Source: Candidatus Brocadiia bacterium | GTDB taxonomy: Bacteria; Planctomycetota; Brocadiia; SM23-32 | Reading direction: 5' to 3' | Length of the DNA: 36,979 bases | Assembly: GCA_046538485.1 (NCBI GenBank) | Contig: JBKHIT010000052.1 | Location: 1-36,979, forward strand | Shown here: positions 908-35,534 of the stretch, piece by piece | Layout of the letters: every line of letters begins with the position of its first letter | Position numbering within the stretch: the first letter of the stretch is position 1 | The notes under the pieces: generated by a model | Seen by the model: only the letters and a program-made list of their open reading frames with translations | Told to the model about the DNA's origin: nothing | Databases searched by the model: none | Position numbers and translations under genes: made by a program

Positions 908-2284
908 ATGGCCAAAGACGCCGAAGTGTTGGTGGAACAGCTCGATAGCTTTGATGCCGGCGAGAGACGTTCGGCCCTGGAGGAGTTGGCCCGACGGGCT
1001 CGGGCCGGCGCTATTGAGCGTCAGGAACCAGAGGGATGGATCAATCTCCACTCTCACACTTTTTTTTCCTATAATGGCTACGGGTACTCTCCCTCTCGGT
1101 TTGCCTGGGAAGCATGGCATCGAGGACTGGAGGTTGCCGGGATTGTCGACTTCGACGTTCTCGACGGTACGACCGAGTTCCTTGAGGCCGGGCGGTTGTT
1201 GGGGCTAAAAACAACGGCAGGTTTCGAGACCCGCGTGTTCATCCCGGAGTACAGCGATCGGGTCATTAATTCCCCGAAAGAACCCGGCGTCTATTATCTT
1301 GTTGGGACCGGATTTGCAACTCCGCCCGAACCGGGCACGGAAGCAGCCGGGACGCTCCAGGATATGAAACGGCGTGCGCAGGAGCGTAACCGCGAGATGA
1401 TGCGGAAGATCAACGAGTACCTGGGCGGTGTGCAGCTCGATTATGAAGAAGATATCGTTCCCCTGACCGCGGCCGGAAACGTGACCGAACGTCACATGGT
1501 GACGGCTTATGAGTCCAAAGCGCGGGACGTTTTTGAGGAAGAGGATCAGCTGGTTCCATTCTGGGCCGACAAGTTGGGCGAGCCCGAGAGTGGTGTCCGA
1601 GCCCTTCTCGACGATATCCCAGGTTTGAAAAGTTTGATTCGGTCCAAACTGATGAAACATGGTGGGGTCGGTTATGCTCAGCCGGATGCCGGCTCTTTCC
1701 CCACGTTGGAGAAGGTCAATGATCTGACTTTATCCTGCGATGCTGTTCCGAGCGGATGCTGGCTGGACGGCACGAGCGCGGGCGAGAAGGACCCCCTGGA
1801 ACATTTTGGCTTTCTGCGTGATAAAGGTTGTGCGACGATCACCATCATCCCGGATCGTAACTGGAATGTGCCCGAGGATGAACGAGAGATGAAGGTCCTG
1901 AAACTGAACGAGGCGATTGAGGCCGCGAAAGAGCTGCGAATGCCGATTCTGGTCGGGACGGAGATGAACAAATACGGGAACCGGTTTGTCGATGATTTCA
2001 GTTCGGACGCTCTGGCACCACATCTCGGCACCTTCCGTCGTGGGGCGCACATCTTGTGGGGCCACACGCTTCTCCGTATGACCGCTGGAGTGGGGTATAC
2101 GGGGGAATGGGCGGATGCGCATTTCAGGAACCAAACAGGCGAAAAGAACGAGTTCTTCCGCCGCATTGGCGCGTTTGATTACCCCGGAGAAGAGACAATG
2201 GCCGCCCTCGAAAAGATGAATGAGGATGCGAGCCCGTCCGATTTCGAACATCTCATCTGGAAGGATCAGGAAACGAATCAATAG
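908..2284 (+). CDS. PHP-domain (polymerase/histidinol phosphatase-like) protein, atypical
   Basis: 458 aa; NLHSHTFFS (HxH motif), then SP..AW.A..RGLEVAGIVDFD and GFE motifs of the PHP fold; short HEAT-like N-terminal helix pair. Confidence 0.7.
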   Translation: MAKDAEVLVEQLDSFDAGERRSALEELARRARAGAIERQEPEGWINLHSHTFFSYNGYGYSPSRFAWEAWHRGLEVAGIVDFDVLDGTTEFLEAGRLLGLKTTAGFETRVFIPEYSDRVINSPKEPGVYYLVGTGFATPPEPGTEAAGTLQDMKRRAQERNREMMRKINEYLGGVQLDYEEDIVPLTAAGNVTERHMVTAYESKARDVFEEEDQLVPFWADKLGEPESGVRALLDDIPGLKSLIRSKLMKHGGVGYAQPDAGSFPTLEKVNDLTLSCDAVPSGCWLDGTSAGEKDPLEHFGFLRDKGCATITIIPDRNWNVPEDEREMKVLKLNEAIEAAKELRMPILVGTEMNKYGNRFVDDFSSDALAPHLGTFRRGAHILWGHTLLRMTAGVGYTGEWADAHFRNQTGEKNEFFRRIGAFDYPGEETMAALEKMNEDASPSDFEHLIWKDQETNQ

Positions 2285-3356: not shown

Positions 3357-3541
3357 AAGAACCGAAAGTGGCCCGATTTCAGAAAGATTGAACAATTGCC
3401 GGTTTTGTTTCACTCAGTGAGTGACGCGGTTGCTGGACGAGTTATTATAATAAGTAGTTGGATACTTCCTGATCCGGCTGTACGGCCATAGGTGGCTGTC
3501 GACCGGCGATTTCGCACTTTCATTGTTTATGGGGTCGGATT

Positions 3542-4837
3542 TTGCTGTCGAGTCTTCGGGCTATAACTCGCAATTCATTTGTTGAGATAATACGCCAGCC
3601 GATCTACGCGATTCTGGTGGTTGTGGGGATTGTGCTGATAGGGGCGAGCCCACTGATCACTATGTTCACGATGATGGAAGACGTGAAACTGGCGATCGAT
3701 ATGGGGCTGGGCACCATCTTCATGGTCGGTATAGTTCTGTCGATCCTCAGCGCCACTCAGGTTATCAGTCGTGAGATTGAGGCCAAAACTGCCGGGGCCG
3801 TCATCAGCAAACCGGTCGGACGGTTTGTCTTTGTGGCCGGTAAATTCTTTGGCGTCACGCTGGCGATGGCGCTGGCCTCTTTGCTTTTTACATTGATGCT
3901 TCTGATGACGGTCAGAATGGGAGTGCCCTCGACGGCGAGTTTCCAGATCGACTGGCCGGTTTTCCTGGCGCAGGTGTTGCCTCTTACTCTGGCCATCGGG
4001 GCCGGGATTTACTCCAATTATTTTTACCGCAGCAATTTCACCGCTACCGCAGTTATCTCTGGCCTGGTTCTTTATGTGTTTGCCTTTGTTTGTCTTCTTT
4101 TTGTCAGTAAAGAATGGTCATTGGAGTGGATTGCGCTGAGTTTCATCGCCAAAGACGCGTGGCCGGTCTTTCTGGCATGTGTGCTGGTATTTTTGGGCGT
4201 CTGGATGATTGCGTCGGTGGCGGTGGCGGCCTCCACCCGGCTGAACGTCGTGGCAAATGTGCTGATCTGCCTGCTTGTGTTCTTTGTTGGTATGCTTTCC
4301 CAATATCTTTTTGGCTGGACTGTTAATGATGCCTGGGTGCGGTGGGCGCCGCAACAGGATAAGAAGACCGTGCTCGTTTCCGGGAGGGTTGTTTCCAGAG
4401 ACGGGTCGCCGCTGGAGGGGGTTCAGATGATGGGTGTTCCCATGAATCCCGCTACCGATCCGTCCGGACGCTACGGTGTTAAGGTGTTGATGGGTGGTTC
4501 TGGCACAATCCAACCGCGGAAGCTTGGTTACGAGTTCAGCCCGCCGGCGCGCGACCTCGACGAGATACAGAAGCCGCGTCGCGATGTGGATTTCAAAGCC
4601 ATTCCCCGTGAAAAGACCGTGCTTGTTTTCGTGCGGGCCGGCTGGTTCGGCATCTGCTGGACCGCCTACCACGTTGTGCCGTCACTGCAGCTGTTCTGGG
4701 TGGCGGATCAACTGATGCGTCCCGACCCCATCATTCCGGTAGGATACGTTCTGAAAGCAGCAGGCTATGCTTGCGCGTGGTGCGTTGCGATGGTAGCATT
4801 TGGCGCATTCCTGTTCGGGCGGCGAGAGATCATATGA
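3542..4837 (+). CDS. ABC-2 type permease (PilI-like) with an inserted carboxypeptidase-regulatory-like beta-sandwich domain
   Basis: AITRNSFVEIIRQP, DMGL, SREIEAKTAGAVISKPVGRFVFVAGKFFG, C-terminal FGRREI; many TM segments; soluble insert VSGRVVSRDGSPLEGV...TDPSGRY...GYEFSP at 4367-4600. TTG start is uncertain. Confidence 0.8.
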   Translation: MLSSLRAITRNSFVEIIRQPIYAILVVVGIVLIGASPLITMFTMMEDVKLAIDMGLGTIFMVGIVLSILSATQVISREIEAKTAGAVISKPVGRFVFVAGKFFGVTLAMALASLLFTLMLLMTVRMGVPSTASFQIDWPVFLAQVLPLTLAIGAGIYSNYFYRSNFTATAVISGLVLYVFAFVCLLFVSKEWSLEWIALSFIAKDAWPVFLACVLVFLGVWMIASVAVAASTRLNVVANVLICLLVFFVGMLSQYLFGWTVNDAWVRWAPQQDKKTVLVSGRVVSRDGSPLEGVQMMGVPMNPATDPSGRYGVKVLMGGSGTIQPRKLGYEFSPPARDLDEIQKPRRDVDFKAIPREKTVLVFVRAGWFGICWTAYHVVPSLQLFWVADQLMRPDPIIPVGYVLKAAGYACAWCVAMVAFGAFLFGRREII

Positions 4838-4871
4838 GTTGGTGTTGAGAACGAGGAGGAGCTGACGAAAA

Positions 4872-6866
4872 ATGCCTCATAAGAAAAAAGTTGAGAACAC
4901 GGCCTGGCTGGGGCTGTTTTTGCAAATCATTTTTGCCGGCATCGCTTTCGCCCTGTATTACAAGACGGGTGAGGTCAGCAAAGCGCTCCTGGCGGAGACC
5001 TGGTTTTTGCTTTCCGGTGTGCCGGTGTGGGGGATGGTTGCCCTGCATGGACGGCAGAGACGGCGGGCCCGCGAAGAGCGGGAAGAGATGGAAGAACTGA
5101 AGCAGAAACGGACCAGCGAGGAGATTTTTGAGGATCAGGAACTCGACCGCATGCGAGCCCACACGGGGCTTCGGATTTTCGAAAAATTCGTGGAAACTGG
5201 ATTCTCGGTCCTGCTGGCTGTGTTGCTCGGGTTTCTGTGTTATTGGAACATCCAGGGCGTTATCGCCGTCGAAGAGATGAAAACGATTGAAAGTCCGCTG
5301 GCTGCCGTGGTCGGCATGGCGGTCATCTCCTTCTTCGGTTTCGTGTTGGCTAAATATGTAGTGGGGCTGGCCCACGATTCACGGCTGCGTCTGCTGCGCG
5401 CGGCCGGTTCGTACCTCATGGGCAACGTTGTGGGCAGTCTGCTGATTCTGGCTTCGATGAGTCTCTACCACTTTGGTATTGAGCTGGCGGAGCTCGCGGC
5501 TGCGTTCATTGTGCCGGGCGTGATGGGGCTTATCGCCGTTGAAATGCTCCTGAACTTTATCCTCGATATTTATCGACCGCGTGTGCCCGGTCAGGAACGT
5601 CGGGCCGTTTACGACAGCCGGCTTCTGAATCTGGTTTCGGAACCGGGTGATATTCTGCAGACGGTGGCGGCAACGCTCGACTATCAGTTTGGTTTTAAGA
5701 TTTCGGAAACATGGTTTTACCGGTTTATGCAAGGGGCGATCATCCCGTTGATACTGATCTGGCTGTCCCTTCTGTGGCTCCTTTCGGGGTTGGTTGTCGT
5801 CGATCGCGGAGAGATTGCGTTTATCGAGCGATTTGGAAAGCCGAGATTGCGGCCGGAGGATAAAAAACGGGAGTTGAAAGCGAGTGTTTACGGGCCGGGC
5901 TATCATTTGAAATGGCCGTGGCCAATTGAGAAAGCCTCCCGAATACCGGCGAAAAGGATTTACCGGAAAGAAATCGGGCGGCTGTATTACGAACAGGACG
6001 ACGTCGCCAGAGAGCAGATGGAACCGCCGGGCTCCGAGGGCGAAATCCAGACAATGACCGATCCTGATATCATTCTCTGGAAAGAATTGCACGTTGATCC
6101 GAAAGAAGGCAAAGAAGCCAGTTTCCTTGTGCCAAGCGTAATGCAATTGGAAGAAAAACTTCAGGCCCCGGCCCTGAACATTGCGCGGCTGGTCGCTCGT
6201 TTCCATTATCGCATCAAACGGCAAGAGGATGGGTCGGTCGACCCGAAAGCTGCCTATAATTTCCACTATCGTCATGCGAACCCCGAGGCGTTGATCGAGG
6301 ATCTGGCATACCGTGTGACCTGTGAGCTGGCGGCCAGCCAGAATTTTCTTGAATGGATTAATGTCAGGCGCGGCGAGGTGTCGAGGCGGTTTGCGAAAAA
6401 GTTTTCCGAACAACTGAACGCCCATAAGACAGGGGTTGAGGTGGTGTATGCGGGAATGCCCGCGGTCCATCCTCCCGCGCAGACAGCGGAGGCCTATGAG
6501 GATGTGATAAGTGCCTACCAGGAAAAAAAGACTATGGTTCAAAAAGCCCGGGCCACGGCCTATGAGAATATTATGGCTGCCAGAGGGAAAGCGGCCCAGG
6601 CCCTGAATGATGCGAAAGGCTACCGATACAAACTAACGGAGGTCTCGCAAGCTCAGGAGGAACGATTTCGAGAGCAGGTGAAAGCATACAAAAAAGCACC
6701 GCAGGTCTACCGATATCGCAGTTACTTCAGCGCTATCGAGCAGGTGCTGGCCGGGCACCGGTTGTTTATTGTGCCTGTGTCTGAAGTGGAAGTCCCGATC
6801 ATTGACATGCAGGAGCGGCTGAGCACAGACATTCTCAGCATGCCCCTGGAGGAGGAGATGGAGTGA
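4872..6866 (+). CDS. SPFH/band 7 protein, HflK-like, with a long multi-TM N-terminal region
   Basis: About 300 aa N-terminal region with several TM helices, then VVVDRGEIAFIERFGKP, GPGYHLKWPWPIE, GVEVV, VHPP.QTAEAYEDVISA and an Ala-rich coiled coil; SD GAGGAG. Confidence 0.85.
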   Translation: MPHKKKVENTAWLGLFLQIIFAGIAFALYYKTGEVSKALLAETWFLLSGVPVWGMVALHGRQRRRAREEREEMEELKQKRTSEEIFEDQELDRMRAHTGLRIFEKFVETGFSVLLAVLLGFLCYWNIQGVIAVEEMKTIESPLAAVVGMAVISFFGFVLAKYVVGLAHDSRLRLLRAAGSYLMGNVVGSLLILASMSLYHFGIELAELAAAFIVPGVMGLIAVEMLLNFILDIYRPRVPGQERRAVYDSRLLNLVSEPGDILQTVAATLDYQFGFKISETWFYRFMQGAIIPLILIWLSLLWLLSGLVVVDRGEIAFIERFGKPRLRPEDKKRELKASVYGPGYHLKWPWPIEKASRIPAKRIYRKEIGRLYYEQDDVAREQMEPPGSEGEIQTMTDPDIILWKELHVDPKEGKEASFLVPSVMQLEEKLQAPALNIARLVARFHYRIKRQEDGSVDPKAAYNFHYRHANPEALIEDLAYRVTCELAASQNFLEWINVRRGEVSRRFAKKFSEQLNAHKTGVEVVYAGMPAVHPPAQTAEAYEDVISAYQEKKTMVQKARATAYENIMAARGKAAQALNDAKGYRYKLTEVSQAQEERFREQVKAYKKAPQVYRYRSYFSAIEQVLAGHRLFIVPVSEVEVPIIDMQERLSTDILSMPLEEEME

Positions 6867-7915
6867 AAGAGAACAAGGTCACAATTGCTGTCGTCCTGAT
6901 CGTGCTGGTGCTGTTGCTTGCCTACGGATTTGTCTACCAGGTGCCAGAAACCAAGATGGTCGTCCACTATCGTCCCCCGAAGACCCTTTACAAGGTCCGC
7001 AATGCCGGTCAGGGCGAAAAAGGGCCCTACGAAGGGGGCCCCGGCCTCTACTTTCGTTTTCCCTACCCCATCGATGAGGTCCAGGAATACGATAAAAGAG
7101 TCCGGGTTATCGACGGGCCCCTGAACCAGACTGTCCTGGAAGACGAATGGCACGTGATTATCTCGATCTATGCAGCCTGGCGGATCAAGGACCCGCTGGC
7201 TTTCGAAGAGTCGCTGGAAGGGGATGTCCGTAGAGCCGAAGACCGGCTGAAAGATGTGATTTATAACGAGACCTCCGAAGCAATCGGCCAGCTCAGATTC
7301 AACCAACTGGTGTCGACAAACGAGGAAAAGGTTCAACTTCAGGCGCTGGAGGCGGGGGTTCAGGCCGGGGCACGGCAGGCGATTGGGCAGAAAAACTACG
7401 GGATTGAGTTACTGCACTTCGGCATCCGCCGGATCGCAATCCCGGAATCCACAACACAGAAGGTATTCGAGCGTATGAAAGCTGAGCGCCAGAAAGTGGC
7501 CGACAGGTTTCGGAACCAGGGAGAAACAGAGGAAAAAGAGATCGTTTCAGAAGCAAAGAAGAAGGCGGAAAAAATTCTGGCCGATGCTCGCAGCAGGGCG
7601 GAAGAGATTCGGAGCGAGGGAGAGGCGAAAGAAGCGGAATACTACGACAAATTCGCGCAACATCCTGAGCTGGCGATCTTCCTTCGACGGCTCGATGCGC
7701 TCCGCACTATTGCGCGCAAAGCCAGGGAATCGGGCACGCCCATTAGTTACGTCCTCGACACGAAAACCGAGCCCCTCGGCGCTCTCCACCGTGGTCCGCA
7801 GGAACGAGAAACCCTGGAGGGTCCCCTCGGGGATGAAGGCGTGGTGCCGGATGAAGAAACCGGTGTTGAAAATGAATCCGAAAAGCCCGAAACAACCCCA
7901 CCGACAGAAAAATAA
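6863..7915 (+). CDS. SPFH/band 7 protein, HflC-like
   Basis: Single N-terminal TM; PGLYFRFPYPIDEVQEYDKR, WRIKDP, YGIEL..FGIRRIAIP, VFERMKAERQKVADRFRNQGE, FLRRLDAL. GTG start overlaps the upstream stop (GTGA); SD GGAGGAG. Confidence 0.88.
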   Translation: MKENKVTIAVVLIVLVLLLAYGFVYQVPETKMVVHYRPPKTLYKVRNAGQGEKGPYEGGPGLYFRFPYPIDEVQEYDKRVRVIDGPLNQTVLEDEWHVIISIYAAWRIKDPLAFEESLEGDVRRAEDRLKDVIYNETSEAIGQLRFNQLVSTNEEKVQLQALEAGVQAGARQAIGQKNYGIELLHFGIRRIAIPESTTQKVFERMKAERQKVADRFRNQGETEEKEIVSEAKKKAEKILADARSRAEEIRSEGEAKEAEYYDKFAQHPELAIFLRRLDALRTIARKARESGTPISYVLDTKTEPLGALHRGPQERETLEGPLGDEGVVPDEETGVENESEKPETTPPTEK

Positions 7916-7953
7916 TCGGATAAAAGTCGCGATAGATTGAAAGAGGATCAAAA

Positions 7954-9183
7954 ATGGCAGACAACCAGAACGATCAGTTTACCGGGCAGAACGAGGACGA
8001 GTCCGGACCCGATCAACAACAGAATACCGGAACCGGATCCCGGGATATCGGAAGCGAAGCTCTCTCGCATGCTCTCAGTATCAGCTTCCGGTTCCTGATT
8101 ATTGGCATGGTGATTCTGGTGGTGATCTATCTGCTGCAAGGATTGTTTGTGGTTGGAAGGGACAAACTTGCGGTTAAATTGTGTTTCGGGCGACCCGTCA
8201 AATTGAACCTGGGCGCCGACCGCGGTCGCGGCTATGTGCTGGATTCGGAAAGCGGCTGGCGATACTGCTGGCCCTGGGAGGAGGTCGTCTATATTTCCCT
8301 CCAGGAACAGACACTTAAACTGCAGAAAGATCTGTGGCCGAGCAGTAACCAACCGGCGTCACAAAGTGGACCTGGACAGGGGTTGAATGTCAAACAGGAC
8401 AATTATCTTATCACCGGGGATGCCAATATTATCGGCATTCAACTTCAAGCAAAATATCGGGTGAAGCGCGAAGATGCCATGGATTACGCATTCCGCTGGT
8501 GCAGAAGCACTGACGAGGAAGATTCCGAACCGGTTCGCGATATGCTCAGACGGATGCTGATCGAGACGGCTATCGAAACTGTTGGCACCTGGGATGTGCT
8601 TTCAGTGCGGAGTAAATCGAAGACGATACCCGGACCGGAAGGGGGACGGAAGGTCAAACTCAACCTCTTCCGGGTAATGGAAGATAAACTTGAAGAAAAA
8701 CTGCGAAAATTCGAAGAACTCAATGGTTTCTCGCTTGGAGTCCAGGTAACCTCCATTGAACCGGTCGAAGATCCCGAAGTCCCACCCGCGGCCCGACAGG
8801 CTTTTGTGATGGCCGTTGATGCCGAAAGCGAGAAAGACCGACTTCTGGAGGAAGCTCACCGGGAAGCGAATCGGATCGTCCAGCAGGCCGAAGGACTGGC
8901 GACCGAGATCGAAGCCGAAGCGTCTACCTTTTCCAGCCGACTGGTAGCAAGCGCGCGAGGCGATTCTAAAGCCCTCATGAATCTGCTGAAAGTATATAAA
9001 GAGTCACCCCAAAAGGCTGCCATACTCCGGGATTGGCACTACCAGAGGATGATCGAAGAACTTCTGGGGCAGGCCGAAGGTTCTTTTGTGCTGCACCGGC
9101 CGGCTGAAGGCAGTAAACGAGAGCTGAGATTGTTGCTTGGAAAACCAATGAGTAAAGCCGACGAGGAAGAAAAAAATAGATAA
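7954..9183 (+). CDS. SPFH/band 7 protein, HflK-like
   Basis: N-terminal ALS.ALSISFRFL plus TM; AVKLCFG, GWRYCWPW, YLITGDANII, LGVQVTSIE, PPAARQAF..AVDAESEKDRL, coiled coil; SD GAGGA. Confidence 0.85.
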   Translation: MADNQNDQFTGQNEDESGPDQQQNTGTGSRDIGSEALSHALSISFRFLIIGMVILVVIYLLQGLFVVGRDKLAVKLCFGRPVKLNLGADRGRGYVLDSESGWRYCWPWEEVVYISLQEQTLKLQKDLWPSSNQPASQSGPGQGLNVKQDNYLITGDANIIGIQLQAKYRVKREDAMDYAFRWCRSTDEEDSEPVRDMLRRMLIETAIETVGTWDVLSVRSKSKTIPGPEGGRKVKLNLFRVMEDKLEEKLRKFEELNGFSLGVQVTSIEPVEDPEVPPAARQAFVMAVDAESEKDRLLEEAHREANRIVQQAEGLATEIEAEASTFSSRLVASARGDSKALMNLLKVYKESPQKAAILRDWHYQRMIEELLGQAEGSFVLHRPAEGSKRELRLLLGKPMSKADEEEKNR

Positions 9184-9266
9184 AACCAGCTGAATCGTAG
9201 CGCGGCCCGAAGCCTGCTCTTTTGCATCTGGACCGAACGCTGCGGAGTCAATGGAGGAAATAACAC

Positions 9267-11231
9267 GTGGCTCACGAACACGAACATGAACACGAAGAAG
9301 GGCCGGAAGGTTTCCACGATCATCAGCATTTCGGGAGCCTGCAGACCCGCCTGGTTGTTACGCTTATCGGGTTTATCCTGATCGTTAATGCCTTCCTGGC
9401 TGACAAGGTATTTTTCCCAGATCAGCCTGCCATCGGCGCAATCAGTTCGCTCCTGGGAGCGCTTATCCTGGGGATCCCAATCGTTGTCGGAGGATTCAGA
9501 GAACTCAGACGAGGGCAGGTCCATCTCTCAGCGCTTGTGGCTATTGCTGTGGTCTCGGCGTTCGTTCTCTCGAACTATCAGGTGGCCGGACTCGTGGCAT
9601 TTTTCATGCTGCTGGCCAGTTTGATCGAGCAACAAACCGCCGCCGGCGCCCGGGAATCGGTCGAAAAACTCATGCAGTTCCAGCCCAATAAAGCTGAACT
9701 TGTCGACGGCACCGTGGTGGAAGCTTCGGAACTCAAACCGGGCGACACGATCCGGCTGAGACCGGGGGATCGCGTTCCGGCCGACGGTGAGCTGGTGAAC
9801 GGGCAGACGGCGATCAATGAGGCGACGATTACTGGTGAATCTCTGCCCGCTGATAAAGGCCCTGGTGACGAGATATACGCCGGGACCCACAACCTGACAG
9901 GTTCGGTGGAGGCGAAGGTAACCCGGGCCGGGGAGAATACCACTCTGGGTAAGGTCAAACGCCTGATCCTCCAGGCCGAGGCGACGAAGACCCGGCTCAT
10001 GCAGTTGATCGATCGATACGCCCAGTGGTACACCCCGGTCGTTCTTATCGTCGCCGCGGTCGTATGGGTTTTCACGAAAGATGCCGAGCGGTTCATAACC
10101 GTGCTGGTGATTTCGTGCCCCTGCGCGTTCGTTCTCGCAACGCCTACCGCGATGGTTGCCGGCCTGACCGCTGCGGCTCGATTGGGTATTCTCGTGAAGA
10201 ACGTCGCTCATCTGGAAGGAGCGGGAGACCTGACCGCTGTCGTGTTTGATAAGACCGGGACTTTGACGACCGGAGAATTGACGGTTACGCGGCTTTCGCC
10301 GGCCGAAGGCGTGGAACCATCTGAACTGATCCGTGCCGCCGGGAGCATCGAGCAACATTCGCGCCACCCGATAGCCCTTGCGGTCACAGAGGTGGCGGAA
10401 AAGGCGAATATCGACCTGAAAGAGGTCACCAATGCCGAGGAAAGCCCGGGTATGGGTATCCGCGGCCAGGTGGGGGAGAGTGAAGTGATAGTCGGACGTT
10501 CGAGCTGGCTCCAGGATCACGGCGTCGATATGAGTCTCGCCGAGACCGACGAACATCAGGCCGAAGTGGAAGGCATGAGCCTGCTGTATGTGGCCAGGGA
10601 TGGAGAATGCCTGGGATGGGTTGGGCTCGAGGATAAGGCCCGGGACGAGGCCCAAAGGGCCACGAGTGAATTGAAAGATCTCGGTATCAATCGGCTCACC
10701 ATGCTGACCGGCGACCGGTGGAGTGTGGCGAAGAAAGTTGCCGGAGAACTGGGTTGCACCGAAGTGCAGGCCGAATGCCTCCCCGAGCAGAAATTAAACC
10801 TTGTCGAAACAATGCGTCAGGAAGGTAACCAGGTCGGTGTGGTTGGGGATGGTGTGAATGATGCTCCGGCTCTGGCGGCCGGGGACCTCGGCATTGCAAT
10901 GGGAGCCGCCGGCAGCGATGTGGCCATCGGGAGCGCCTCGATCGCACTGATGAGCAACGACCTGCGGCGTCTGCCGGTCCTCGTGCGTCTCTCACGTCGG
11001 CTTCGGCGGATCATTATACAGAACCTCGCTGTGGGCGCTATATTTGTGGTCGGGGGAGCGACCCTCGCGAGCTTCGGTATTTTGACCCCGATTGTGGCCG
11101 CTATCCTGCACAATGTTAGTTCGTTCCTCGTTATTTTCAACAGCGCGCGTCTGGTCCGGTTCGAGGAGAACCTGGCGATTTCTCCTGAAAAAGAAGAAAG
11201 TGCGCCCGGACCTCAACCGGCTGCAGTTTGA
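9267..11231 (+). CDS. Heavy-metal translocating P1B-type ATPase with His-rich N-terminus
   Basis: N-terminal HEHEHEHE...HDHQH; TGES, ISCPCAFVLATP, phosphorylation motif DKTGTLT, SRHP, MLTGD, GDGVNDAPALA, last TM HNVSS; SD GGAGG before GTG. Confidence 0.95.
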   Translation: MAHEHEHEHEEGPEGFHDHQHFGSLQTRLVVTLIGFILIVNAFLADKVFFPDQPAIGAISSLLGALILGIPIVVGGFRELRRGQVHLSALVAIAVVSAFVLSNYQVAGLVAFFMLLASLIEQQTAAGARESVEKLMQFQPNKAELVDGTVVEASELKPGDTIRLRPGDRVPADGELVNGQTAINEATITGESLPADKGPGDEIYAGTHNLTGSVEAKVTRAGENTTLGKVKRLILQAEATKTRLMQLIDRYAQWYTPVVLIVAAVVWVFTKDAERFITVLVISCPCAFVLATPTAMVAGLTAAARLGILVKNVAHLEGAGDLTAVVFDKTGTLTTGELTVTRLSPAEGVEPSELIRAAGSIEQHSRHPIALAVTEVAEKANIDLKEVTNAEESPGMGIRGQVGESEVIVGRSSWLQDHGVDMSLAETDEHQAEVEGMSLLYVARDGECLGWVGLEDKARDEAQRATSELKDLGINRLTMLTGDRWSVAKKVAGELGCTEVQAECLPEQKLNLVETMRQEGNQVGVVGDGVNDAPALAAGDLGIAMGAAGSDVAIGSASIALMSNDLRRLPVLVRLSRRLRRIIIQNLAVGAIFVVGGATLASFGILTPIVAAILHNVSSFLVIFNSARLVRFEENLAISPEKEESAPGPQPAAV

Positions 11232-11245
11232 AGAGGATCTAATAT

Positions 11246-12481
11246 ATGACAGCAAGAAAAACACCAATCATTCAAACGATCGAACTAACAAAAATCTATC
11301 GTGATTTCTGGGGACGCGGCCGGGTAAAGGCCCTGGATGGGCTGAACCTCGAAGTCAACCGGGGCGAAGTGTTCGGTCTGCTCGGCCCGAACGGATCGGG
11401 AAAGACTACCACCGTGCGCCTCATCCTGGGACTGCTGTTTCCTACGAAAGGCGTGGTGCGCCTGTTCGGTCAGGATCCACGGGATGTGGACGTGAAAAAA
11501 CGCGTCGGATATATGCCCGAAGAATCACACCTCTACGAGTATCTCAACGCGGAAGAGACCCTTGATTTCTTCGGAAGAATTTTCGGTCTTTCTGGCGCCG
11601 AACGCCGGCGCCGCACCGATTCCCTGATCGAGATGGTCGGCCTCGAGCGGGCGCGGCATCGCCCGATCGGAGAATTTTCAAAGGGTATGGCCCGCCGTAT
11701 CGGTCTCGCCCAGGCCCTTATCAACGACCCGGATCTTCTGATCCTCGACGAACCGACCACCGGTCTTGATCCACTCGGTAGCCGCGAAATCAAAGACCTT
11801 ATTGGCACACTTCGGGAACGCGGGAAGACGGTATTCCTGTGCAGTCACCTCCTTGCTGACGTGGAGCAAGTCTGCGACCGGGTCTGTATTCTCTACGGCG
11901 GTAAAATCCGGGAGATGGGTCCAGTGGAGGACCTTCTCACGGAGGTCGAACGGAGCGAACTGCGGTTCCCGGCTGTTCCGGAAGAGGTCCTCGAGGAAGT
12001 GCGACACCTCGTGGCCCAGCACGTCGGCTCGGATGAGGATGTCGAAGTCGGCCGACCGGCCCGGCGGCTTGATGAGGTCTTCCTCAGTGTCGTGGAACGG
12101 GCCCGACAGGAAAAACTGGCGACAGCCGGAGCGGAAGCGGGTGGACCCGCCGCAGAATTTCTGACCCAGGAGAAAGACGAAGGAGAAGCGCTGATCGAGG
12201 AACTCGTCAAAGCCGGTAAGAAAGAAAAGGAAGAGGAGACGGCTGCGGAAGAAGAGACCGAACCGGTCCCCGTGGAAGAGGACGCCGAGGAAGACCGGGA
12301 AATGCTTGAAGACCTGACCCGGGAACAGCCCAAACCGACCGCGGAAGAGACGGAAACCGAGCCGGTATCGCCCCCGGAAACCGGTCCCCGCCATGAGGTC
12401 CTCGAGGATTTGGTCCAGAAAGACGAGTCCGGCCGCGAACAGCAGACCCCCAAAGAAGAGCGTGAGCAAGATGAGGACTGA
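11246..12481 (+). CDS. ABC transporter ATP-binding protein (PilH-like) with a long acidic C-terminal tail
   Basis: LTKIYRDFWGR..VKALDGL, Walker A GPNGSGKTT, signature FSKGM, Walker B LLILDEPT, CSH; Glu-rich last ~110 aa. Confidence 0.93.
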   Translation: MTARKTPIIQTIELTKIYRDFWGRGRVKALDGLNLEVNRGEVFGLLGPNGSGKTTTVRLILGLLFPTKGVVRLFGQDPRDVDVKKRVGYMPEESHLYEYLNAEETLDFFGRIFGLSGAERRRRTDSLIEMVGLERARHRPIGEFSKGMARRIGLAQALINDPDLLILDEPTTGLDPLGSREIKDLIGTLRERGKTVFLCSHLLADVEQVCDRVCILYGGKIREMGPVEDLLTEVERSELRFPAVPEEVLEEVRHLVAQHVGSDEDVEVGRPARRLDEVFLSVVERARQEKLATAGAEAGGPAAEFLTQEKDEGEALIEELVKAGKKEKEEETAAEEETEPVPVEEDAEEDREMLEDLTREQPKPTAEETETEPVSPPETGPRHEVLEDLVQKDESGREQQTPKEEREQDED

Positions 12482-14555
12482 TCGCCAGGACATGCCAGCA
12501 TGGGCTCCCCCCGTGCTTTTCGTTGTTTTTCTGCTCATACAAATCCCCGCTCTTGTATGGGTGGGATCAGTGCTGCGGCCGGGGGCCGATCTCGCCGCAG
12601 AGCGTGCGGATCTGATCGTTCCGGGGCTATGGGTAACGTGGGGGATTGCTTTTCTGGTTACGGTGGGGGTTCTTCAGAGTTCCCGTTGGGGAGAACCATG
12701 GAGTCCGGCGGCGCTTCTGGTTGCCTTTTTCGGGTCTTTATTGCCGCTTTCGTATATTTTGATTGGGGCTGTTGGTGGCATAACGCGCTTGCCAGGTCTG
12801 GATCAGTTCTGGGGATTGGTTGGAGATAACCTGTTTGCGATTATTTTGTGGGGCGTTTGCCTCGCCCTTTATGTGGTCAATGTCTGGATGATCTGGCGTT
12901 CACGCTGGCTGGTTGAATGGGCCCCCGAAGGACTGTTACTTCTTTTTGCTGTTTCTTTGGTTCCTGCCGTTTATTTTCTGGGCGGGAAGGTAGTGGAGCT
13001 GACCGGGCAATTTTTCGGGGAGTCTTTTTTGTTAGGCTCACAACTGAAATCCGCCCCCTGGGCCGCAACCGCCTGGTTTGTAAATGTTATGGCTCTGGCT
13101 GCTGTGGCAACACTGCTTTTCACACGCTGGCAGAATCTCTGGGCGGTAGGCCGGAAAATGATAATGGAAGCGCTCAATCGAAAGGTTGTTCTGGTCTTGT
13201 TGGTGTTTTTTGTGATTTTCATGCCTTCGCTTGTTTTTATACTTAAAACTGAGGGGAATCCAAAAAGTCAGGTCCAGATTGTCCTGAAATATTCAATGGC
13301 GCTTGCTGAATTGCTGCTGTCCGTTCTCGCAGTGTTGATCTGTACGGCGTCGATTTGTAGCGAAATCGAGAAAAAACGGGTGCATATAACTGATACCAAG
13401 CCGCTTCTCCGCTGGGAATTTCTCCTGGGCAAATTGCTGGGTGTTATTGTTTTGTGCGGAGCCCTGCTTTTTGTTATGTCGGGTATGGTGTACGGGCTGA
13501 CAGCGTGGATGGTCCGGAGCCGGGATTTTTCACATCTGCCCCCGCACGAGGCGCAACAGCAAAGAACAGCTCTTGCCAGGGTTCGTCGGGAAGTGCTGGT
13601 GGCGCGACGCGCGGCTAAACCCAAAAAACCTAATGTCGAAAGTTTTTTGGAGAAAGAGATCGAACGACGCAGTAAAGAAGGCGAATTTGAGAATCCTCAG
13701 AAAAAGCAGGCGACACGTCGTAAGCTAAAGTCTCAGCTGGAAAAACGTATTACCACAGCCCCCCCCATGGGACACCTTCCTTTTCAATTGTCGGGTTTTG
13801 CACGGAGTAAAGATAACTCAATTTACGTCCGATTCGAACCCCACCGTACGAATAAAGAAGCTGATGGTACATTGCGTGGGGCTTGGGAATTTTTCCTTCC
13901 GGTAAAAGGGAAAGATGGCAAAGGCAGGTTGGCTCTCGCCCATGTTAAGCAGGGGAAATGGGTTGCGGATGCATTCCAGGAAATTGAGGTGAGCGGACAG
14001 CTTGTAAACCCCGATGGGGTGGTGCGTATGGCTTACAGAAATCTGGAAGGGAATACAGGAGTTCAATTTGATCCTGACGAAGGGATCGAGGTGCTGCAAA
14101 GGGTAGGCAGTTTTATGCCTAATTTTTATCGCTCGCTCCTGATCGTGCTTTGCCACATCCTGTTGCTTTCCGCCTTCGCGCTGATGCTGGGGGCGGCCCT
14201 TTCATTTCCTGTGGCGAGTTTTGCCGTGGCAGCCCTTCTTTTGGTAGGACTTCTTGGACCATGGGTGGCCGAATCTGCGCTGGGTGGATACACTCCACGG
14301 CCGGACCACAACACTATGCAAATGGTCTTTGGATACGCGAAAGAAGGCGTGCAGGCGGTTTTAAAAGCCATTTTTGCCATTGCGCCTCAGTTCGGTCGAT
14401 TCAATGCGACGGGAGACCTGGTGAACGGGCGGATTATCAAATGGGGTTCGGTAGGCAAAGCGGCGGCTATTATGGTGTTTATTAAAGGCGGGATTGTGAT
14501 GCTCCTTGGCATCTACATCTACTGGAAAAGGGAACTCGCGAAAGTAATCGCATGA
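12471..14555 (+). CDS. Large ABC-2 type permease with an extra N-terminal TM bundle and a large soluble domain
   Basis: LWAVGRKMIMEALNRK, SICSEIEKKRVHITDTKPLLRWEFLLGKLLG, NFYRS, SFPVA, C-terminal KRELAKV. Start moved from 12393 to ATG 12471, which overlaps the ATPase stop. Confidence 0.8.
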   Translation: MRTDRQDMPAWAPPVLFVVFLLIQIPALVWVGSVLRPGADLAAERADLIVPGLWVTWGIAFLVTVGVLQSSRWGEPWSPAALLVAFFGSLLPLSYILIGAVGGITRLPGLDQFWGLVGDNLFAIILWGVCLALYVVNVWMIWRSRWLVEWAPEGLLLLFAVSLVPAVYFLGGKVVELTGQFFGESFLLGSQLKSAPWAATAWFVNVMALAAVATLLFTRWQNLWAVGRKMIMEALNRKVVLVLLVFFVIFMPSLVFILKTEGNPKSQVQIVLKYSMALAELLLSVLAVLICTASICSEIEKKRVHITDTKPLLRWEFLLGKLLGVIVLCGALLFVMSGMVYGLTAWMVRSRDFSHLPPHEAQQQRTALARVRREVLVARRAAKPKKPNVESFLEKEIERRSKEGEFENPQKKQATRRKLKSQLEKRITTAPPMGHLPFQLSGFARSKDNSIYVRFEPHRTNKEADGTLRGAWEFFLPVKGKDGKGRLALAHVKQGKWVADAFQEIEVSGQLVNPDGVVRMAYRNLEGNTGVQFDPDEGIEVLQRVGSFMPNFYRSLLIVLCHILLLSAFALMLGAALSFPVASFAVAALLLVGLLGPWVAESALGGYTPRPDHNTMQMVFGYAKEGVQAVLKAIFAIAPQFGRFNATGDLVNGRIIKWGSVGKAAAIMVFIKGGIVMLLGIYIYWKRELAKVIA

Positions 14556-14571
14556 TAACGAGCCAGAGGTT

Positions 14572-16359
14572 ATGACAAGAACGCGTCGGCTCATTTTATT
14601 GAGTATAGCTTTTGTTGCCATTGTAGCGGCGAGCTTATTTGTGGAACCCCTGCATCGGAACCAGGTGGAATACGACCTGACCAGCGAACCGGTTGAAGGG
14701 GTGGGAGCCGAGTATGCTTTTGTGAATTCGCTCGGCGCTTTTCGAGGGATCGTCGTTGATGTCGTGTGGATCCGCATGGAAAACCTCAAGAACGATGGGA
14801 AATTCTTTGAGATAGTCCAGCTGGCCGACCTCGCCTGCATGCTCGCACCCCGTTTTCCGAAGGCCTGGGATTTTAACGCCTGGAACATGGCCTACAATGT
14901 CTCGGTTCAGGTCCCCGAATACTCCGAACGCTGGCCCTGGGTGAAAGCCGGTATAGAACTATTGCGGGATCAGGGGATCCCGAATAATCCCTCCGAACCA
15001 GAACTGTATTTCAGCCTGGCCTGGATTTTTTTGCATAAGGTCGGGGATCAACTCGACGATGCTCATGCCTGGTATAAACAACAGCTCGGCGTGGAAATGC
15101 ACGAAGTCCTCGGTGGGGGCGGGTCACCGGAAAAACTGAAACGTCTGAAAAACGCCCCGGCTACCCGGGCGGATCTCTTTCAGGATGACCGGGTCAAAGA
15201 ATTCTACGAAAAGCTGGTAGCAGCCGGATGGGATCCTCTGAAAGTGGTGTCCGACGAGGGACTCCGGCAGTACTTCCTCTGGCTTCGTCGGCCGGATTCT
15301 GTGCCGGAGCCGGCAAGGGGACTCCTGAAAAGTGAAGGGTATGCGCGCGAACATGAAAAGCTCGCCGATTACGTCCGCGCCCGCCGGCTTGAAGATATGA
15401 ACATGGAACCGGAGAAAATGCTCGAATTGATGGACAGATTTGGTCCCCTGGACTGGCGAAGTCCGTATTCGAATGGGATCTATTGGGCGAGCGAGGGCAA
15501 AGAAGTGGCGCAAAGATACCGGGAACGGGTCAGCGAGCGGCGGAAGGTCTTCGGAAAAGAAGAGATAGCCGATGAAGATTGGGGCAGTGAGTTCCCCAAA
15601 TACCGATACGCCGATATCAACTATGACCGCGTAATTTACGGCGCTCTGCAAAGCCTCGTCTCCAAAGGACGCCTGCTTTTCGATAGCCAGGGACGACTTT
15701 TCCCGATGCCCGGTTCTGATTACCGTTTCACTGACGCAATGATCGAACACTTTGAACGCATGGTCGGCAAATACGGCAAGGAAGGGCGCTATTCCACCGG
15801 GATAAATTCGGCCTACGAGAATTTTCTGAAGCGGGTTACGACCGAATTTTATTACATGGGCGACGAGAAGGATTCCCGGAGGTATTACAAACGTCTCCGT
15901 CAGGAATACCCGAAAGACAAATATCCTCCGTCCTATGAGAAATTCATCAATGCCCAGATGCGGGAATATATCGGGATGCTCGGCCCTCAGCAGGCCCGGA
16001 ATGTGGTCAGAGGTCTTTTGGTCCAGCATTATTTGTTCCTGGGGGCCGGTATCGATGACCGGGCCCGCGGATTCATCGAACGCGCTAAAGCCATCGCGGA
16101 GAGGTGGAATGTGAAAAGGGGGGTGAAAGAAGACCCGAGGGCATCGCAGAAAGTCACTTTCAGCGATATTCGGCGGAGTGTATTGATCGATATATTCGCC
16201 GGACGCTACACCATGCCGAAGCGGATTATGAATGGGCTGAAGGAGCAGCTTCCGGAGAAACTGGTGGAAAAAATGGAAAAAGCAGCGGACGAACGCGAAG
16301 AACCATCCCGTTTGAAACCTTTCGAACTCCCCGAGAAATACCGGCGGGAACCGGATTGA
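14572..16359 (+). CDS. Membrane-anchored helical (TPR-like) conserved protein, resembling PilG-type ABC partners
   Basis: N-terminal TM/signal; LGAFRGIVVDVVWIR, LAPRFPKAWDFNAWNMAYNVS, WVKAGIELLRDQGIPNNP..PELYFSLAWIFLHK; SD GAGG. Family call is by recalled motif similarity only. Confidence 0.6.
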   Translation: MTRTRRLILLSIAFVAIVAASLFVEPLHRNQVEYDLTSEPVEGVGAEYAFVNSLGAFRGIVVDVVWIRMENLKNDGKFFEIVQLADLACMLAPRFPKAWDFNAWNMAYNVSVQVPEYSERWPWVKAGIELLRDQGIPNNPSEPELYFSLAWIFLHKVGDQLDDAHAWYKQQLGVEMHEVLGGGGSPEKLKRLKNAPATRADLFQDDRVKEFYEKLVAAGWDPLKVVSDEGLRQYFLWLRRPDSVPEPARGLLKSEGYAREHEKLADYVRARRLEDMNMEPEKMLELMDRFGPLDWRSPYSNGIYWASEGKEVAQRYRERVSERRKVFGKEEIADEDWGSEFPKYRYADINYDRVIYGALQSLVSKGRLLFDSQGRLFPMPGSDYRFTDAMIEHFERMVGKYGKEGRYSTGINSAYENFLKRVTTEFYYMGDEKDSRRYYKRLRQEYPKDKYPPSYEKFINAQMREYIGMLGPQQARNVVRGLLVQHYLFLGAGIDDRARGFIERAKAIAERWNVKRGVKEDPRASQKVTFSDIRRSVLIDIFAGRYTMPKRIMNGLKEQLPEKLVEKMEKAADEREEPSRLKPFELPEKYRREPD

Positions 16360-16754: not shown

Positions 16755-18950
16755 TTAAACCAGCCCACGCCATTTTCGCAGAGCCCATTCGCTTCCGATC
16801 AGTATCAGGAAAGCCAGAAAGAAGAACGGACTGTCCCAGATTTCGTTCCAGCGGTTGGTTTTGAGTCGCACGGGGTCGCCGGTTTCCTGAAGATCCTCGA
16901 GCATCTGGCGCAGACGGGTATGCGGATAATATTTTCCCCCGGCTTCGCTTGTGGCAGCAGATAGCCTTCGAAGAAGGCTGAGGTTTGCAACAGGATTTGA
17001 CAGCTCACGATCTGCCCGGGAAGCCTGGAAAGATGCAGTATCTTCTCCCACAATCTTGCCGCTGCGAGTGGCTTTGGCACTTATCAGGTAAGGACCGGAT
17101 TTCTCAGGGGCATAATTGGCCTGGAAATAGCCGAGTTCGCGCGAGAAAAGACTTTCGAGTTTCTGTGGCTCGCTCTCGGGAGGAGTCACCGTAATGTTTA
17201 CCGTTGCGTCTCGGATGGGGGAACCATCGGGCGCAGTCAGGTGCGCCTGCAGCGTTATGGGCTCACCCAGTCCCACCTGGCCCTTACTCACAACCAGTTG
17301 AAAAGCTTCTTTTTCCTCTTTTTTGATACCTCCCGTCCAAAGAGCCACCTGGCGCCAGAACTTTGTGAATTGTTCCTGGGTATCTTTAGCGGTGAAATAC
17401 CATTTGAACGTAGTATCTGTCAGCACGATCAGCGTTCCGCCAGCTCCAACGCGCTGCGCGCACAAAAGCGGATTTTTCTGTCTGTCCGTTGCGAGTACAG
17501 ACGCTTGACGTCTCGCTTCTACCCCGGTGAGAATGCCCGATAGAGGCGGCATCTTTTTCCATAAGGCACCGGTTTCTTGTTTGGTTTCACCGAGGGCAAC
17601 AACGGGGTGGCCAAGCGCATCGGGAGCGGGCACAAATTTGTGTTTGTTGCCTTCGTAGGACCATTTCGGCGGGAGTGAAACCGGCAATATCGTCTCAAGG
17701 ATACTCCCGCTGAAGCCGCTTCTCCCCGCATTTTCGGGTCCTATGAGCAGGGCCAGACCTGTACCTTTATTCATCACTTGAGATTTCAGCGTCTCAAGTG
17801 CTTTGCTGCCGAAAGCCTGGGGCGGCACATTTCCGAGAAAAACGGCGTCGTAGCGGGTCCAGTCAAGCTTTTCTGCCGGGATTTGATCCCCGGGTGCGAC
17901 AAGTATCCGAAGCAAATTGATTTGAGGAGCATTTCTTAGAGCGGCATAGACAAATTTGCCTTCGGGACGCAGGGATTCAAAATAACCGAGACGTATTCCA
18001 CTGCTGACGACTTTTACAAACTTACTGCGGACGTTGTTCTCGGGGATTATTTCATCTGCCACCTCTGCGGCTCGGATGATTATTTTCAGTTCCCCTTCTT
18101 CTTCCGGCGTGACATCAAACTGGACCGGGACAATTTCTTCGTCGTGGGCCACCGTAACTTTCTGAAATTTCTGGGTTTGGTCGGGAAGTTCCAGTTTGAC
18201 GTCGACGGTTTCTCCCTGACAACCGCGGAACAGGATTTTGGCGCGCACGGAGAATTTGCTGAATACATAGGCCCGACGGGGGGCGTCGATGCTGACTACT
18301 TTGACGTCCCGTATGCGCCCGCCAATTTCTTCCTGCCCCACCCCGACCGTATAGAGGGGCATATTAAGATCGGCCAATGTGGCGGCGGCTTCAAGCGGTT
18401 CCGGCGGACCGAGGTTGTGAGAACCGTCTCCAAACACAACCATACATCCCCCGCCTTGACCGAGATTGGTTTGATCCAGCGCTCCTTTTATCGCTCGGCC
18501 GTAAGCACTGTAGTCGGATGCATATTTCTGCTTGTTCTGATCAATTCCCAGATCACGGGCGAAGTGAAACGTCCGAACCTCGTACTTTTGTGCCAGTTTA
18601 TCCACTAAGGATTGGTTGCTTTTAAAGAGGCTTTCAATGGCCTTAAGGCGTGATTTCCCATCTGGTGTGTCCCGCACTTCTTGCATTGAGCGGCTGGTAT
18701 CAACCAGGAAAACGAGCGGTTTTCTTACGATGCGGTAGGTTGTTGTTTGGATAGCCGGCATCAACAGACACAACAGTAAGATAGCCACTGCGCCTATTCT
18801 TAGCGATATTAGAAAGGTTTTGAGCCATCCGCTAACAGGGCGAGTCGTCCGACGATAGCCTGCGATCAATACAAAGATCAGAATTATTCCAAGAAGGAGA
18901 GCCCCCCACCATGGAATAATGCCACGGAGGATAATGTCGGTTTCTTCCAT
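16755..18950 (-). CDS. Membrane protein with VWA, Ig-like and glutamine amidotransferase-like (DUF1355-type) domains
   Basis: Two N-terminal TMs, MIDAS LVDTSRSM...GDG, IPENN, YDAVFLGNV...LETILPV, FWRQVALW, C-terminal WDSP...EWALRKWRGLV. Start 18950 preferred over 19022. Confidence 0.8.
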   Translation of the reverse strand: MEETDIILRGIIPWWGALLLGIILIFVLIAGYRRTTRPVSGWLKTFLISLRIGAVAILLLCLLMPAIQTTTYRIVRKPLVFLVDTSRSMQEVRDTPDGKSRLKAIESLFKSNQSLVDKLAQKYEVRTFHFARDLGIDQNKQKYASDYSAYGRAIKGALDQTNLGQGGGCMVVFGDGSHNLGPPEPLEAAATLADLNMPLYTVGVGQEEIGGRIRDVKVVSIDAPRRAYVFSKFSVRAKILFRGCQGETVDVKLELPDQTQKFQKVTVAHDEEIVPVQFDVTPEEEGELKIIIRAAEVADEIIPENNVRSKFVKVVSSGIRLGYFESLRPEGKFVYAALRNAPQINLLRILVAPGDQIPAEKLDWTRYDAVFLGNVPPQAFGSKALETLKSQVMNKGTGLALLIGPENAGRSGFSGSILETILPVSLPPKWSYEGNKHKFVPAPDALGHPVVALGETKQETGALWKKMPPLSGILTGVEARRQASVLATDRQKNPLLCAQRVGAGGTLIVLTDTTFKWYFTAKDTQEQFTKFWRQVALWTGGIKKEEKEAFQLVVSKGQVGLGEPITLQAHLTAPDGSPIRDATVNITVTPPESEPQKLESLFSRELGYFQANYAPEKSGPYLISAKATRSGKIVGEDTASFQASRADRELSNPVANLSLLRRLSAATSEAGGKYYPHTRLRQMLEDLQETGDPVRLKTNRWNEIWDSPFFFLAFLILIGSEWALRKWRGLV

Positions 18951-19156
18951 AGACTTTCCGCGAGTTGGGATCAGCTCTTGATCTGGTATTCTACTGAGCA
19001 CGGGCCTGCCGTGCAATCTCAATGGGATTTACAGGGCTGTTGACCATTTGACAAGGCACATCATCCAGTATCTACTGATACCCCCGTTGCTCAATTCGAG
19101 AGGATTATGTGCAAGTTGATGTTGAACCAAATGCAGGCAGATAAGATGAGAGTGCC

Positions 19157-30539: not shown

Positions 30540-30565
30540 TAGTCCACCTTTATTTTTCAACGTTC

Positions 30566-34879: not shown

Positions 34880-34940
34880 CTTTTTATCCCTTCGGTCTTT
34901 ACAGCTCAGAGGGGCTTTAAAAGCTTCTCTGAATTAGCTA

Positions 34941-35519: not shown

Positions 35520-35534
35520 TGAAGCCTCCATAGA

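Follow-up and report, generated by a model that had tools for sequence, protein, structure and literature searches.

The E. coli SPFH proteins HflK and HflC form an assembly of 24 alternating subunits (bioRxiv 10.1101/2024.08.09.604662), and structures of the complex with FtsH have been deposited (PDB 7vhp, 7wi3, 9cz1/9cz2). The roles of bacterial SPFH scaffolds beyond holding FtsH are largely open (PMC12005517). The closest described relative of the locus considered here is PA2439-PA2434 of Pseudomonas aeruginosa, which encodes HflK-, HflC- and HflC-family proteins together with the ATPase HmtA and responds to a znuA mutation with an induction of 5.6-14.4-fold (PMC4542158). Its protein levels rise under zinc depletion, as seen in proteomes (PMC11761036), and Zur binds to its promoter (PMC8531726). 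According to a review, HmtA has been reported as an importer of Cu and Zn (PMC8456098). A 2026 study named the SPFH trio PaFlo5-7 and linked its deletion to mild effects on biofilm formation and virulence (PMC13086221); the words 'hmtA' and 'ATPase' do not occur in the available part of that paper. By sequence, a counterpart of this locus lies in a 36,979-nucleotide contig of a Candidatus Brocadiia bacterium (GCA_046538485.1, JBKHIT010000052.1; contig C122). This entire contig, referred to as the window, comes from a genome of 5.19 Mb that is 88% complete; the nearest homologues are from Candidatus Brocadiia and Planctomycetota, in keeping with a Brocadiia genome outside the anammox group. In it, the three SPFH genes and their ATPase stand between the genes of an ABC (ATP-binding cassette) module.

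The block consists of eight genes on the plus strand (3542-16359), in the order permease 1 (A), an HflK-like protein with an additional N-terminal domain (B, or HflK*), an HflC-like protein (C), a second HflK-like protein (D, or HflK2), a P1B ATPase (E), an ABC ATPase (F), permease 2 (G) and a helical protein (H). All eight open reading frames are present and Pfam and NCBIfam scans agree with their labels, and the co-orientation, order and spacing proposed in the original prediction stand. The gaps from A to H are 34, -4, 38, 83, 14, -89 and 16 nt; the F-G value of -89 assumes the longest open reading frame and becomes -11 or +10 if the ATG at 12471 or 12492 is used. GC content shows no break across the window. 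A promoter scan returned 10 sites where 10.5 are expected, and terminator-like sites were uninformative. The 185-nt gap upstream of A contains two palindromes, at 3410-3424 and 3442-3453 (TCACTCAGTGAGTGA; TTATTATAATAA).

The conserved order in relatives that had been anticipated was found. Within the family, 23 of 24 genomes have a match to gene B. Among 27 Brocadiia loci cut around B, the full set of eight in unchanged order is present in 18, two of which have split genes; the other nine run into a contig edge, with the order intact up to there. This is more than chance because three lineages of the PVC (Planctomycetes-Verrucomicrobia-Chlamydiae) type retain the order at identities of 23-70%, and the eight-gene block can be regarded as a real, conserved predicted operon. 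A scan of named genomes with an alignment of H, in which at least 589 of 599 candidates were confirmed, gave at least 80 loci, which belong to Brocadiia, Phycisphaerae, Lentisphaeria, Kiritimatiellia, Verrucomicrobiae and a small number of other groups. Among the matches listed, 40 PVC loci have the 9 kb or more upstream of H needed for assessment; 30 of these hold B-G (two repeat loci already counted) and two lack E only. In many Phycisphaerae A is divergently oriented, and E may lie before A or elsewhere. Despite these rearrangements the linkage persists in Brocadiia, Phycisphaerae, Lentisphaeria and Verrucomicrobiae. The operon-type B domain also occurs in 45 of 121 genomes from the phylum of a Verrucomicrobiae record.

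The link between genes B-E and the zinc-regulated PaFlo5-7/hmtA locus rests on order and sequence. Six Pseudomonas copies were reached through published PA14 primer sites, five of them with all four sites. They show a long HflK*, C, K2, a gap and then a 663-aa (amino acid) P1B ATPase with CPC and LHNLST, identified as HmtA by its position. HmtA and E share 38% identity over 644 aa, versus 34% for ZntA and 33% for CopA. Pseudomonas HflK* is 27% identical to B over 449 aa, and PaFlo5/6/7 fall among the stand-alone trio rows of the SPFH groups. Gene order, ATPase clade and the CPC and LHNxS motifs are therefore the same. However, the 9 kb on either side of the six loci contain neither an ABC-2 module nor H, a gap of ~600 nt (PA2436 in the papers) precedes the ATPase, and the loci belong to a separate subclade. 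In addition, Zur control is so far known from the Pseudomonas locus only. A Klebsiella HflK* query returned no Pseudomonas protein among its best 120 matches. The original prediction knew of no characterised system with this composition. For the four-gene core this has to be given up, as the core is an already known, mechanistically unexplained locus with published regulation data and a deletion mutant. It holds for the union with the ABC module, which, like the fusions described below, is apparently new: neither the eight-gene block nor fusions of CDF or P1B domains to SPFH were found described in the literature searched, with most subscription journals and bioRxiv supplements lying outside it. 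In PMC2636767 the words 'ATPase' and 'cation' do not occur.

The original prediction missed one feature: the first SPFH protein carries an additional N-terminal domain. HflK* (4872-6866, plus strand; 664 aa) has ~290 residues ahead of its anchor helix (~290-308), which is followed by an HflK-like SPFH domain and coiled coil. Residues ~1-244 (4872-5603, plus strand), joined to the rest by a linker, are predicted to be a six-helix membrane domain with the fold of the cation diffusion facilitators (CDFs), such as YiiP/FieF and ZnT/SLC30. Cation_efflux is matched by 9 of 44 B family members, below cut-off, and the B-domain profile also picks up the genome's own CDF. Alignment with E. coli FieF in hhalign gives E 2.6e-8 (global). 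The predicted model of B has a pLDDT (predicted local distance difference test) of 90.7 and contains only helices in the N-terminal domain. Its six best rows in VIA-align are CDFs (best SLC30A10, Z 16.2, root-mean-square deviation 3.0, 182 residues; next unrelated row Z 9.6). Foldseek returned no row at E<=0.001 for the domain, and the first 21 rows listed are all CDFs.

Does this domain transport anything? In the FieF alignment, CDF site A maps to F45, G49, Y181 and N185 of B. Neither site-A aspartate is kept in any of 58 HflK* rows, and the first position is His in 14 of them. The domain also differs from CDFs in its fusion to SPFH and in having no match to ZT_dimer, the CDF cytosolic dimerisation domain, whereas the genome's own CDF has one. 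An active CDF in this lineage was rejected on the loss of the site-A aspartates.

The strongest reason to think that the scaffold serves transporters is that the first trio subunit carries a transporter-fold domain in every trio type seen, be it a degenerate CDF, an intact CDF or a whole P1B ATPase. In five loci (L056, L150, L229, L230, L231) an intact CDF, with HSxxD and HxxxD both present and no CDF cytosolic domain, is fused to HflK and followed by HflC and HflK. Two of the five adjoin a ZntA-type pump. In seven others (L055, L057, L058, L239-L242) a His-type P1B ATPase occupies the HflK* slot, its C-terminus joined to an HflK-like SPFH domain in proteins of ~980-1020 aa, and C and K2 follow. 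The SPFH-ATPase fusions whose existence in relatives had been raised as a check are thus real. Such fusions name candidate clients of bacterial SPFH scaffolds. In L150 the trio is followed by genes for a peptidyl-prolyl isomerase, the ZntA-type pump, PCu(A)C and SCO.

The HflC-like protein (6863-7915, plus strand; 350 aa) has a single N-terminal helix, and HflK2 (7954-9183, plus strand; 409 aa) a single helix at 47-65. Band_7 is matched above cut-off in B, C and D. C scores 136.1 bits with TIGR01932 HflC (cut-off 134.4) and E 5e-24 with HflC of PDB 7vhp/7wi3, and B and D match TIGR01933 HflK below cut-off. Like E. coli HflK/HflC, the trio combines K- and C-type subunits made of SPFH domain and coiled coil with one anchor helix. 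It differs in having three subunits, one of them fused to the CDF-fold domain, in lying in separate clades and in being encoded with transporters. The remaining two of the genome's five Band_7 matches are a short pair on contig C23. In a tree of 99 SPFH rows (FastTree, local supports), B, C and D each fall with their stand-alone trio counterpart (moderate supports of 85, 87 and 96), apart from canonical HflK/HflC, whereas the C23 pair groups with the two-gene pairs of E. coli, anammox bacteria and others. A duplication of canonical HflKC is rejected by this tree. Two arginines of HflK are candidate FtsH contacts. With the numbering uncertain (Arg191 of the paper is Ala in the translation used), the R193 column is conserved in 7/7 canonical HflK and 0/42 trio-clade rows, and the R185 column is mixed. 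Transposon insertion (TraDIS) tables for V. spinosum, as far as available, give the hflC-assigned VSP_RS34280 and six nearby tags as non-essential; the tags could not be mapped to the operon and were not used.

The P1B ATPase E (9267-11231, plus strand; 654 aa) has a His-rich N-terminus, CPC in M4, DKTGT, LHNVSS in M6 and no K or YN in M5. It scores 549 bits with TIGR01525 (cut-off 346). Among 56 operon E rows, CPC is present in 53 and the M6 His in 54. The M5 column that holds Asn in CopA and Lys in ZntA holds V/I/L/M (V/I in 52/56), and Asn and Lys are absent from all 56. Assignment to CopA (P1B-1: M5 YN, M6 MxxS) or ZntA (P1B-2: M5 K, M6 D) was rejected on these motifs. Mycobacterial CtpC has CPC and H-N-x-S/T, with the pattern N-X18-H-N-x-S/T across TM5-TM6 (review PMC13460109). 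This P1B-6/CtpC motif is only half matched, as E has H615-N-V-S and no TM5 Asn; the P1B::SPFH fusion forms keep the Asn. A tree of 73 P1B rows (FastTree; three unlinked paralogues from trio-bearing genomes were joined to the group after the first tree) places 40 rows on one side of a branch with support 100, among them E, P. aeruginosa HmtA and every trio-linked ATPase of this type. By sequence, E groups with HmtA and fits neither P1B-1 nor P1B-2. The PacL-CtpC/G/V effluxosomes are similar in that P1B ATPases cluster in the membrane in a scaffold-dependent manner (PMC13460109). This is an analogy only: PacL is not an SPFH protein, the available text of that review mentions neither SPFH nor flotillin, and E lacks the TM5 Asn.

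Trio and ATPase also keep company across genomes. In a single sample of 251 Planctomycetota genomes, the operon-type B domain occurs in 46, 43 of them at E<1e-40. Long-form H (E<1e-80) is found in every one of the 43, and so is an E orthologue, which scores E<1e-142 in 42 genomes and is a 59% identical partial match in the remaining one. Conversely, 42 of the 44 genomes with E at E<1e-142 hold HflK*. The other two are fragmented genomes, one of which has a 5.5-kb contig taken up entirely by D-E-F-G-H. The count of 43 covers the operon type only because the B-domain profile misses most stand-alone trios. The co-occurrence of HflK* and E also holds where the ATPase is unlinked (genomes G041, G153 and G180). 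In three complete genomes with E absent from the block, E is encoded elsewhere and the trio is still beside F-G-H. Two genomes with a trio-less H locus have no E orthologue detectable with this query. A ranking of the 4,954 plasmid records that match P1B is headed by three trio-linked ATPases, and zinc and copper genes flank plasmid copies of trio and ATPase. In a Paraburkholderia locus (L146:1-6718) they are preceded by genes for a zinc/metal ABC transporter, a GTP-binding protein and PCu(A)C.

Myxococcus PilG/PilH/PilI and Geobacter Xap consist of an ABC ATPase, one or more ABC-2 permeases and an anchored helical protein. F, G, A and H have a like composition. PilGHI has been called ABC-like (PMC6060248). 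Permease 1 (A; 3542-4837, plus strand; 431 aa, TTG start) has ~8 hydrophobic segments and a soluble insert, and its close relatives are also 431 aa long, with the alignment starting at residue 1. Permease 2 (G; 12393-14555, plus strand), with a large soluble insert, has a longest open reading frame of 720 aa and more likely starts at 12471 or 12492. Its residues 30-165 (12480-12890) add about four hydrophobic helices near the N-terminus, a segment that is filled in 0/86 homologues. Both permeases match ABC2_membrane_2 weakly and below cut-off (E 1e-4 for A and 3e-4 for G). H (14572-16359, plus strand; 595 aa) is membrane-anchored and all-helical, with TPR-like repeats, a large insertion and a conserved W-x-x-x-A-W-N-M-A-Y-N motif. 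Family scans found no Pfam or NCBIfam family for it, and it has 2,212 relatives at 50% clustering. Its predicted model is all-helical (pLDDT 91); Foldseek gave no match at E<=0.001, and the fold matches seen are only generic TPR-like ones, with Z up to 10.9. An atlas label, 'IRE family', is an automatic name and was not adopted, and a scan of viral contigs with the H alignment gave no usable pattern. With the H domain in 191/251 genomes of the sample, about three quarters, the F-G-H-A module is widespread in Planctomycetota and is without a family model. In one locus (L129:3818-5968, from a record labelled Caldisericota) three genes lie between G and H, one resembling a family-2 glycosyltransferase by eye.

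The ABC ATPase F (11246-12481, plus strand; 411 aa) has intact motifs (Walker A GPNGSGKT, signature FSKGM, Walker B LLILDEP) and an acidic tail of 126 aa, 35% Asp/Glu. The part after LDEP exceeds 200 aa in 59/62 trio-linked loci versus 2/27 loci without the trio; 23 further loci could not be judged, their upstream DNA being too short. Several short-tailed, unlinked F rows are nested among linked rows. Perhaps the tail shrank when the trio was lost, a correlation that is only suggestive because kin are not independent.

Is the ABC module part of a pilus system? In Ca. Manganitrophus (L263:5220-18386), a locus reached through a short form of H, homologues of F, G, H and A (hidden Markov model scores 406, 106, 117 and 136) lie among genes for prepilin, PilZ, secretin, PilM and the M protein of type II secretion, and an anammox locus (L165) has the same neighbours. 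These are 2 of 140 H-containing loci, and a prepilin motif occurs near H in 3/140 versus 2/118 other loci. The window holds no prepilin motif, as had been noted for the block, and the genome's 136 prepilin-type N_methyl matches are all off C122. There are no pil genes at the window operon, and the genome has no match to Manganitrophus PilM or PilZ. A conserved pilin neighbourhood for the operon was therefore rejected, given the 2/140 loci and no prepilin enrichment. The PilGHI likeness proposed earlier keeps a minority link to pilus-type genes, and the pilin link for the operon was looked for and not found. Because such neighbours are so rare and prepilin motifs no commoner near H, the likeness, one of composition, is a lead on the ancestry of the module and not a property of the operon.

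From these genes, folds, orthologies, co-occurrences and fusions we infer the following arrangement. HflK*, HflC-like and HflK2 would assemble with one another into a separate SPFH hetero-oligomer, shaped as a cage or an open ring, that lies on the outer face of the inner membrane and is built for transporters and not for FtsH; by analogy with HflK/HflC, a cage is very probable. B and D would most likely share the HflK positions of the ring, as the 24-subunit assembly suggests. Each HflK* would bring a CDF-fold domain into the enclosed membrane, where the dead domain is most likely an anchor or adaptor and could dock E. E may be the obligate partner of the scaffold, and we are confident of some functional tie between trio and ATPase. 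Judged by its Cys-Cys-His ligands and by HmtA, it would move a soft metal, Zn or Cu; metal as cargo is moderately favoured. The A-F-G-H machine would be older, a separate PVC machine recruited to the patch that exports or matures an envelope substrate beside the metal flux, and a functional tie to it is somewhat more probable than its absence. Taken whole, a dedicated SPFH cage that organises metal transport and is coupled to an exporter has about even chances. A more daring version, in which SPFH cages have a built-in client (HflK* fused to a transporter domain) and the PVC cage encloses an HmtA-type pump and an ABC exporter, so that envelope proteins are loaded with metal and exported at a single station, is rather doubtful. 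A complex prediction for ATPase residues 18-637 with HflK* 1-312 (56-row alignments; score 0.01, mark 0.32) weighs neither way.

Several observations tell against a coupled machine of this kind. Anammox and Planctomycetia loci usually have F-G-H but no SPFH genes, and 8 of the 40 assessable H loci among the matches listed lack the trio. Plasmids of Paraburkholderia, Rhizobium, Klebsiella and Burkholderia, and several Planctomycetota, carry B-C-D-E with no ABC genes. Some ATPases of the clade have lost metal ligands (detailed below), which is a genuine obstacle to reading the machine purely as one of metal transport. The P1B::SPFH fusions belong to a sister lineage outside the window's clade. 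A crude test on 25 relatives found no conserved regulator palindrome within 180 nt upstream of A. On the Pseudomonas side, the hmtA transcript did not decrease when zinc was added (PMC8531726), the effects of the paFlo5-7 deletion are only mild and metals are not among the phenotypes described in the available text (PMC13086221). Finally, related genomes are not independent samples and the trees are FastTree only. The block is in any case made of two modules that also occur apart, HflK*-HflC-HflK2-P1B and the ABC-2 module with H. The original prediction had taken the position of the SPFH and ATPase genes between the ABC genes as a sign of one unit. The order is conserved, but the argument is weaker than it seemed because each module occurs alone and A is divergent or E moved in many Phycisphaerae. 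What if the operon simply holds two uncoupled, independent machines, namely an SPFH/metal module of the HmtA type and a housekeeping ABC-2 module, under a common promoter? The separate occurrence of each module, the wide spread of H (191/251 genomes, versus 43 with operon-type HflK*) and the second, stand-alone trio and ATPase copies in genomes G047 and G279 fit this idea. Nevertheless, it is unlikely, as the linkage survives the rearrangement of A and E across four lineages, the trio is beside F-G-H even when E has moved, and the tail of F tracks the trio.

It is also conceivable that the trio is a specialised FtsH cage that recruits one of the two FtsH proteases encoded in the genome and so controls turnover of the ATPase and the permeases, with the dead CDF domain as adaptor. 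The homology to HflK/HflC is clear and the genome has two FtsH genes, on contigs C67 and C90. None lies in the window, in line with what had been noted for the block, but this absence proves little because E. coli hflKC is itself unlinked to ftsH. However, the genome already has a canonical-type pair on C23, the transporter domain fused to HflK* would fill the cage and the R193-column arginine is missing from the trio clades (with the caveat on numbering), which leaves an FtsH cage quite improbable. A role of the ABC module as a PilGHI/Xap-like helper of type IV filament proteins, with the SPFH proteins and ATPase supplying metal or a membrane platform for their maturation, would suit the Manganitrophus and anammox loci, the anchored, TPR-like H and the many N_methyl matches in the genome. 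Against the rarity of such neighbours, the lack of prepilin enrichment and the missing PilM and PilZ, it has only a slim chance. Alternatively, the machine may have left metal transport altogether and use ATP to handle lipids, glycans or proteins together with the ABC exporter, or act as a sensor. The lost site-A aspartates and the missing M5 Asn/Lys are compatible with this. Moreover, metal transport everywhere fits poorly because some ATPases of the clade have lost their metal ligands with DKTGT intact: paralogues have GPS, YPD or PME, and the unlinked E orthologues L203 and L204, from the complete genomes G153 and G180, read VPA for CPC and lack the M6 His; both genomes retain trio and ABC module. 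On the other hand, CPC and the M6 His are nearly universal in the operon rows, the N-termini are His-rich, HmtA has been reported as a Cu/Zn importer (PMC8456098) and zinc and copper genes flank plasmid copies, so that a non-metal role seems the most remote of these alternatives.

The arrangement favoured here, a dedicated SPFH cage around metal transport, can be put to the test at once, because half of the system resides in a genetically tractable laboratory organism with a published deletion mutant. If it is true, a scaffold or dead CDF partner that sets direction or stability could explain why HmtA is an atypical P-type importer.

The surroundings of the operon are partly conserved. Upstream, a PHP-domain gene (908-2284, plus strand) accompanies it in 15/27 Brocadiia loci at 56-64% identity, and downstream a convergent gene resembling von Willebrand factor A domains (16755-19022, minus strand) does so in 10/27. 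Further along, the window encodes a 504-aa ankyrin-repeat protein with about ten repeats (19157-20671, plus strand) and an ordinary efflux operon (29265-35531, minus strand) composed of a TetR regulator, TolC, a membrane-fusion protein, an ABC ATPase and a MacB-type permease.

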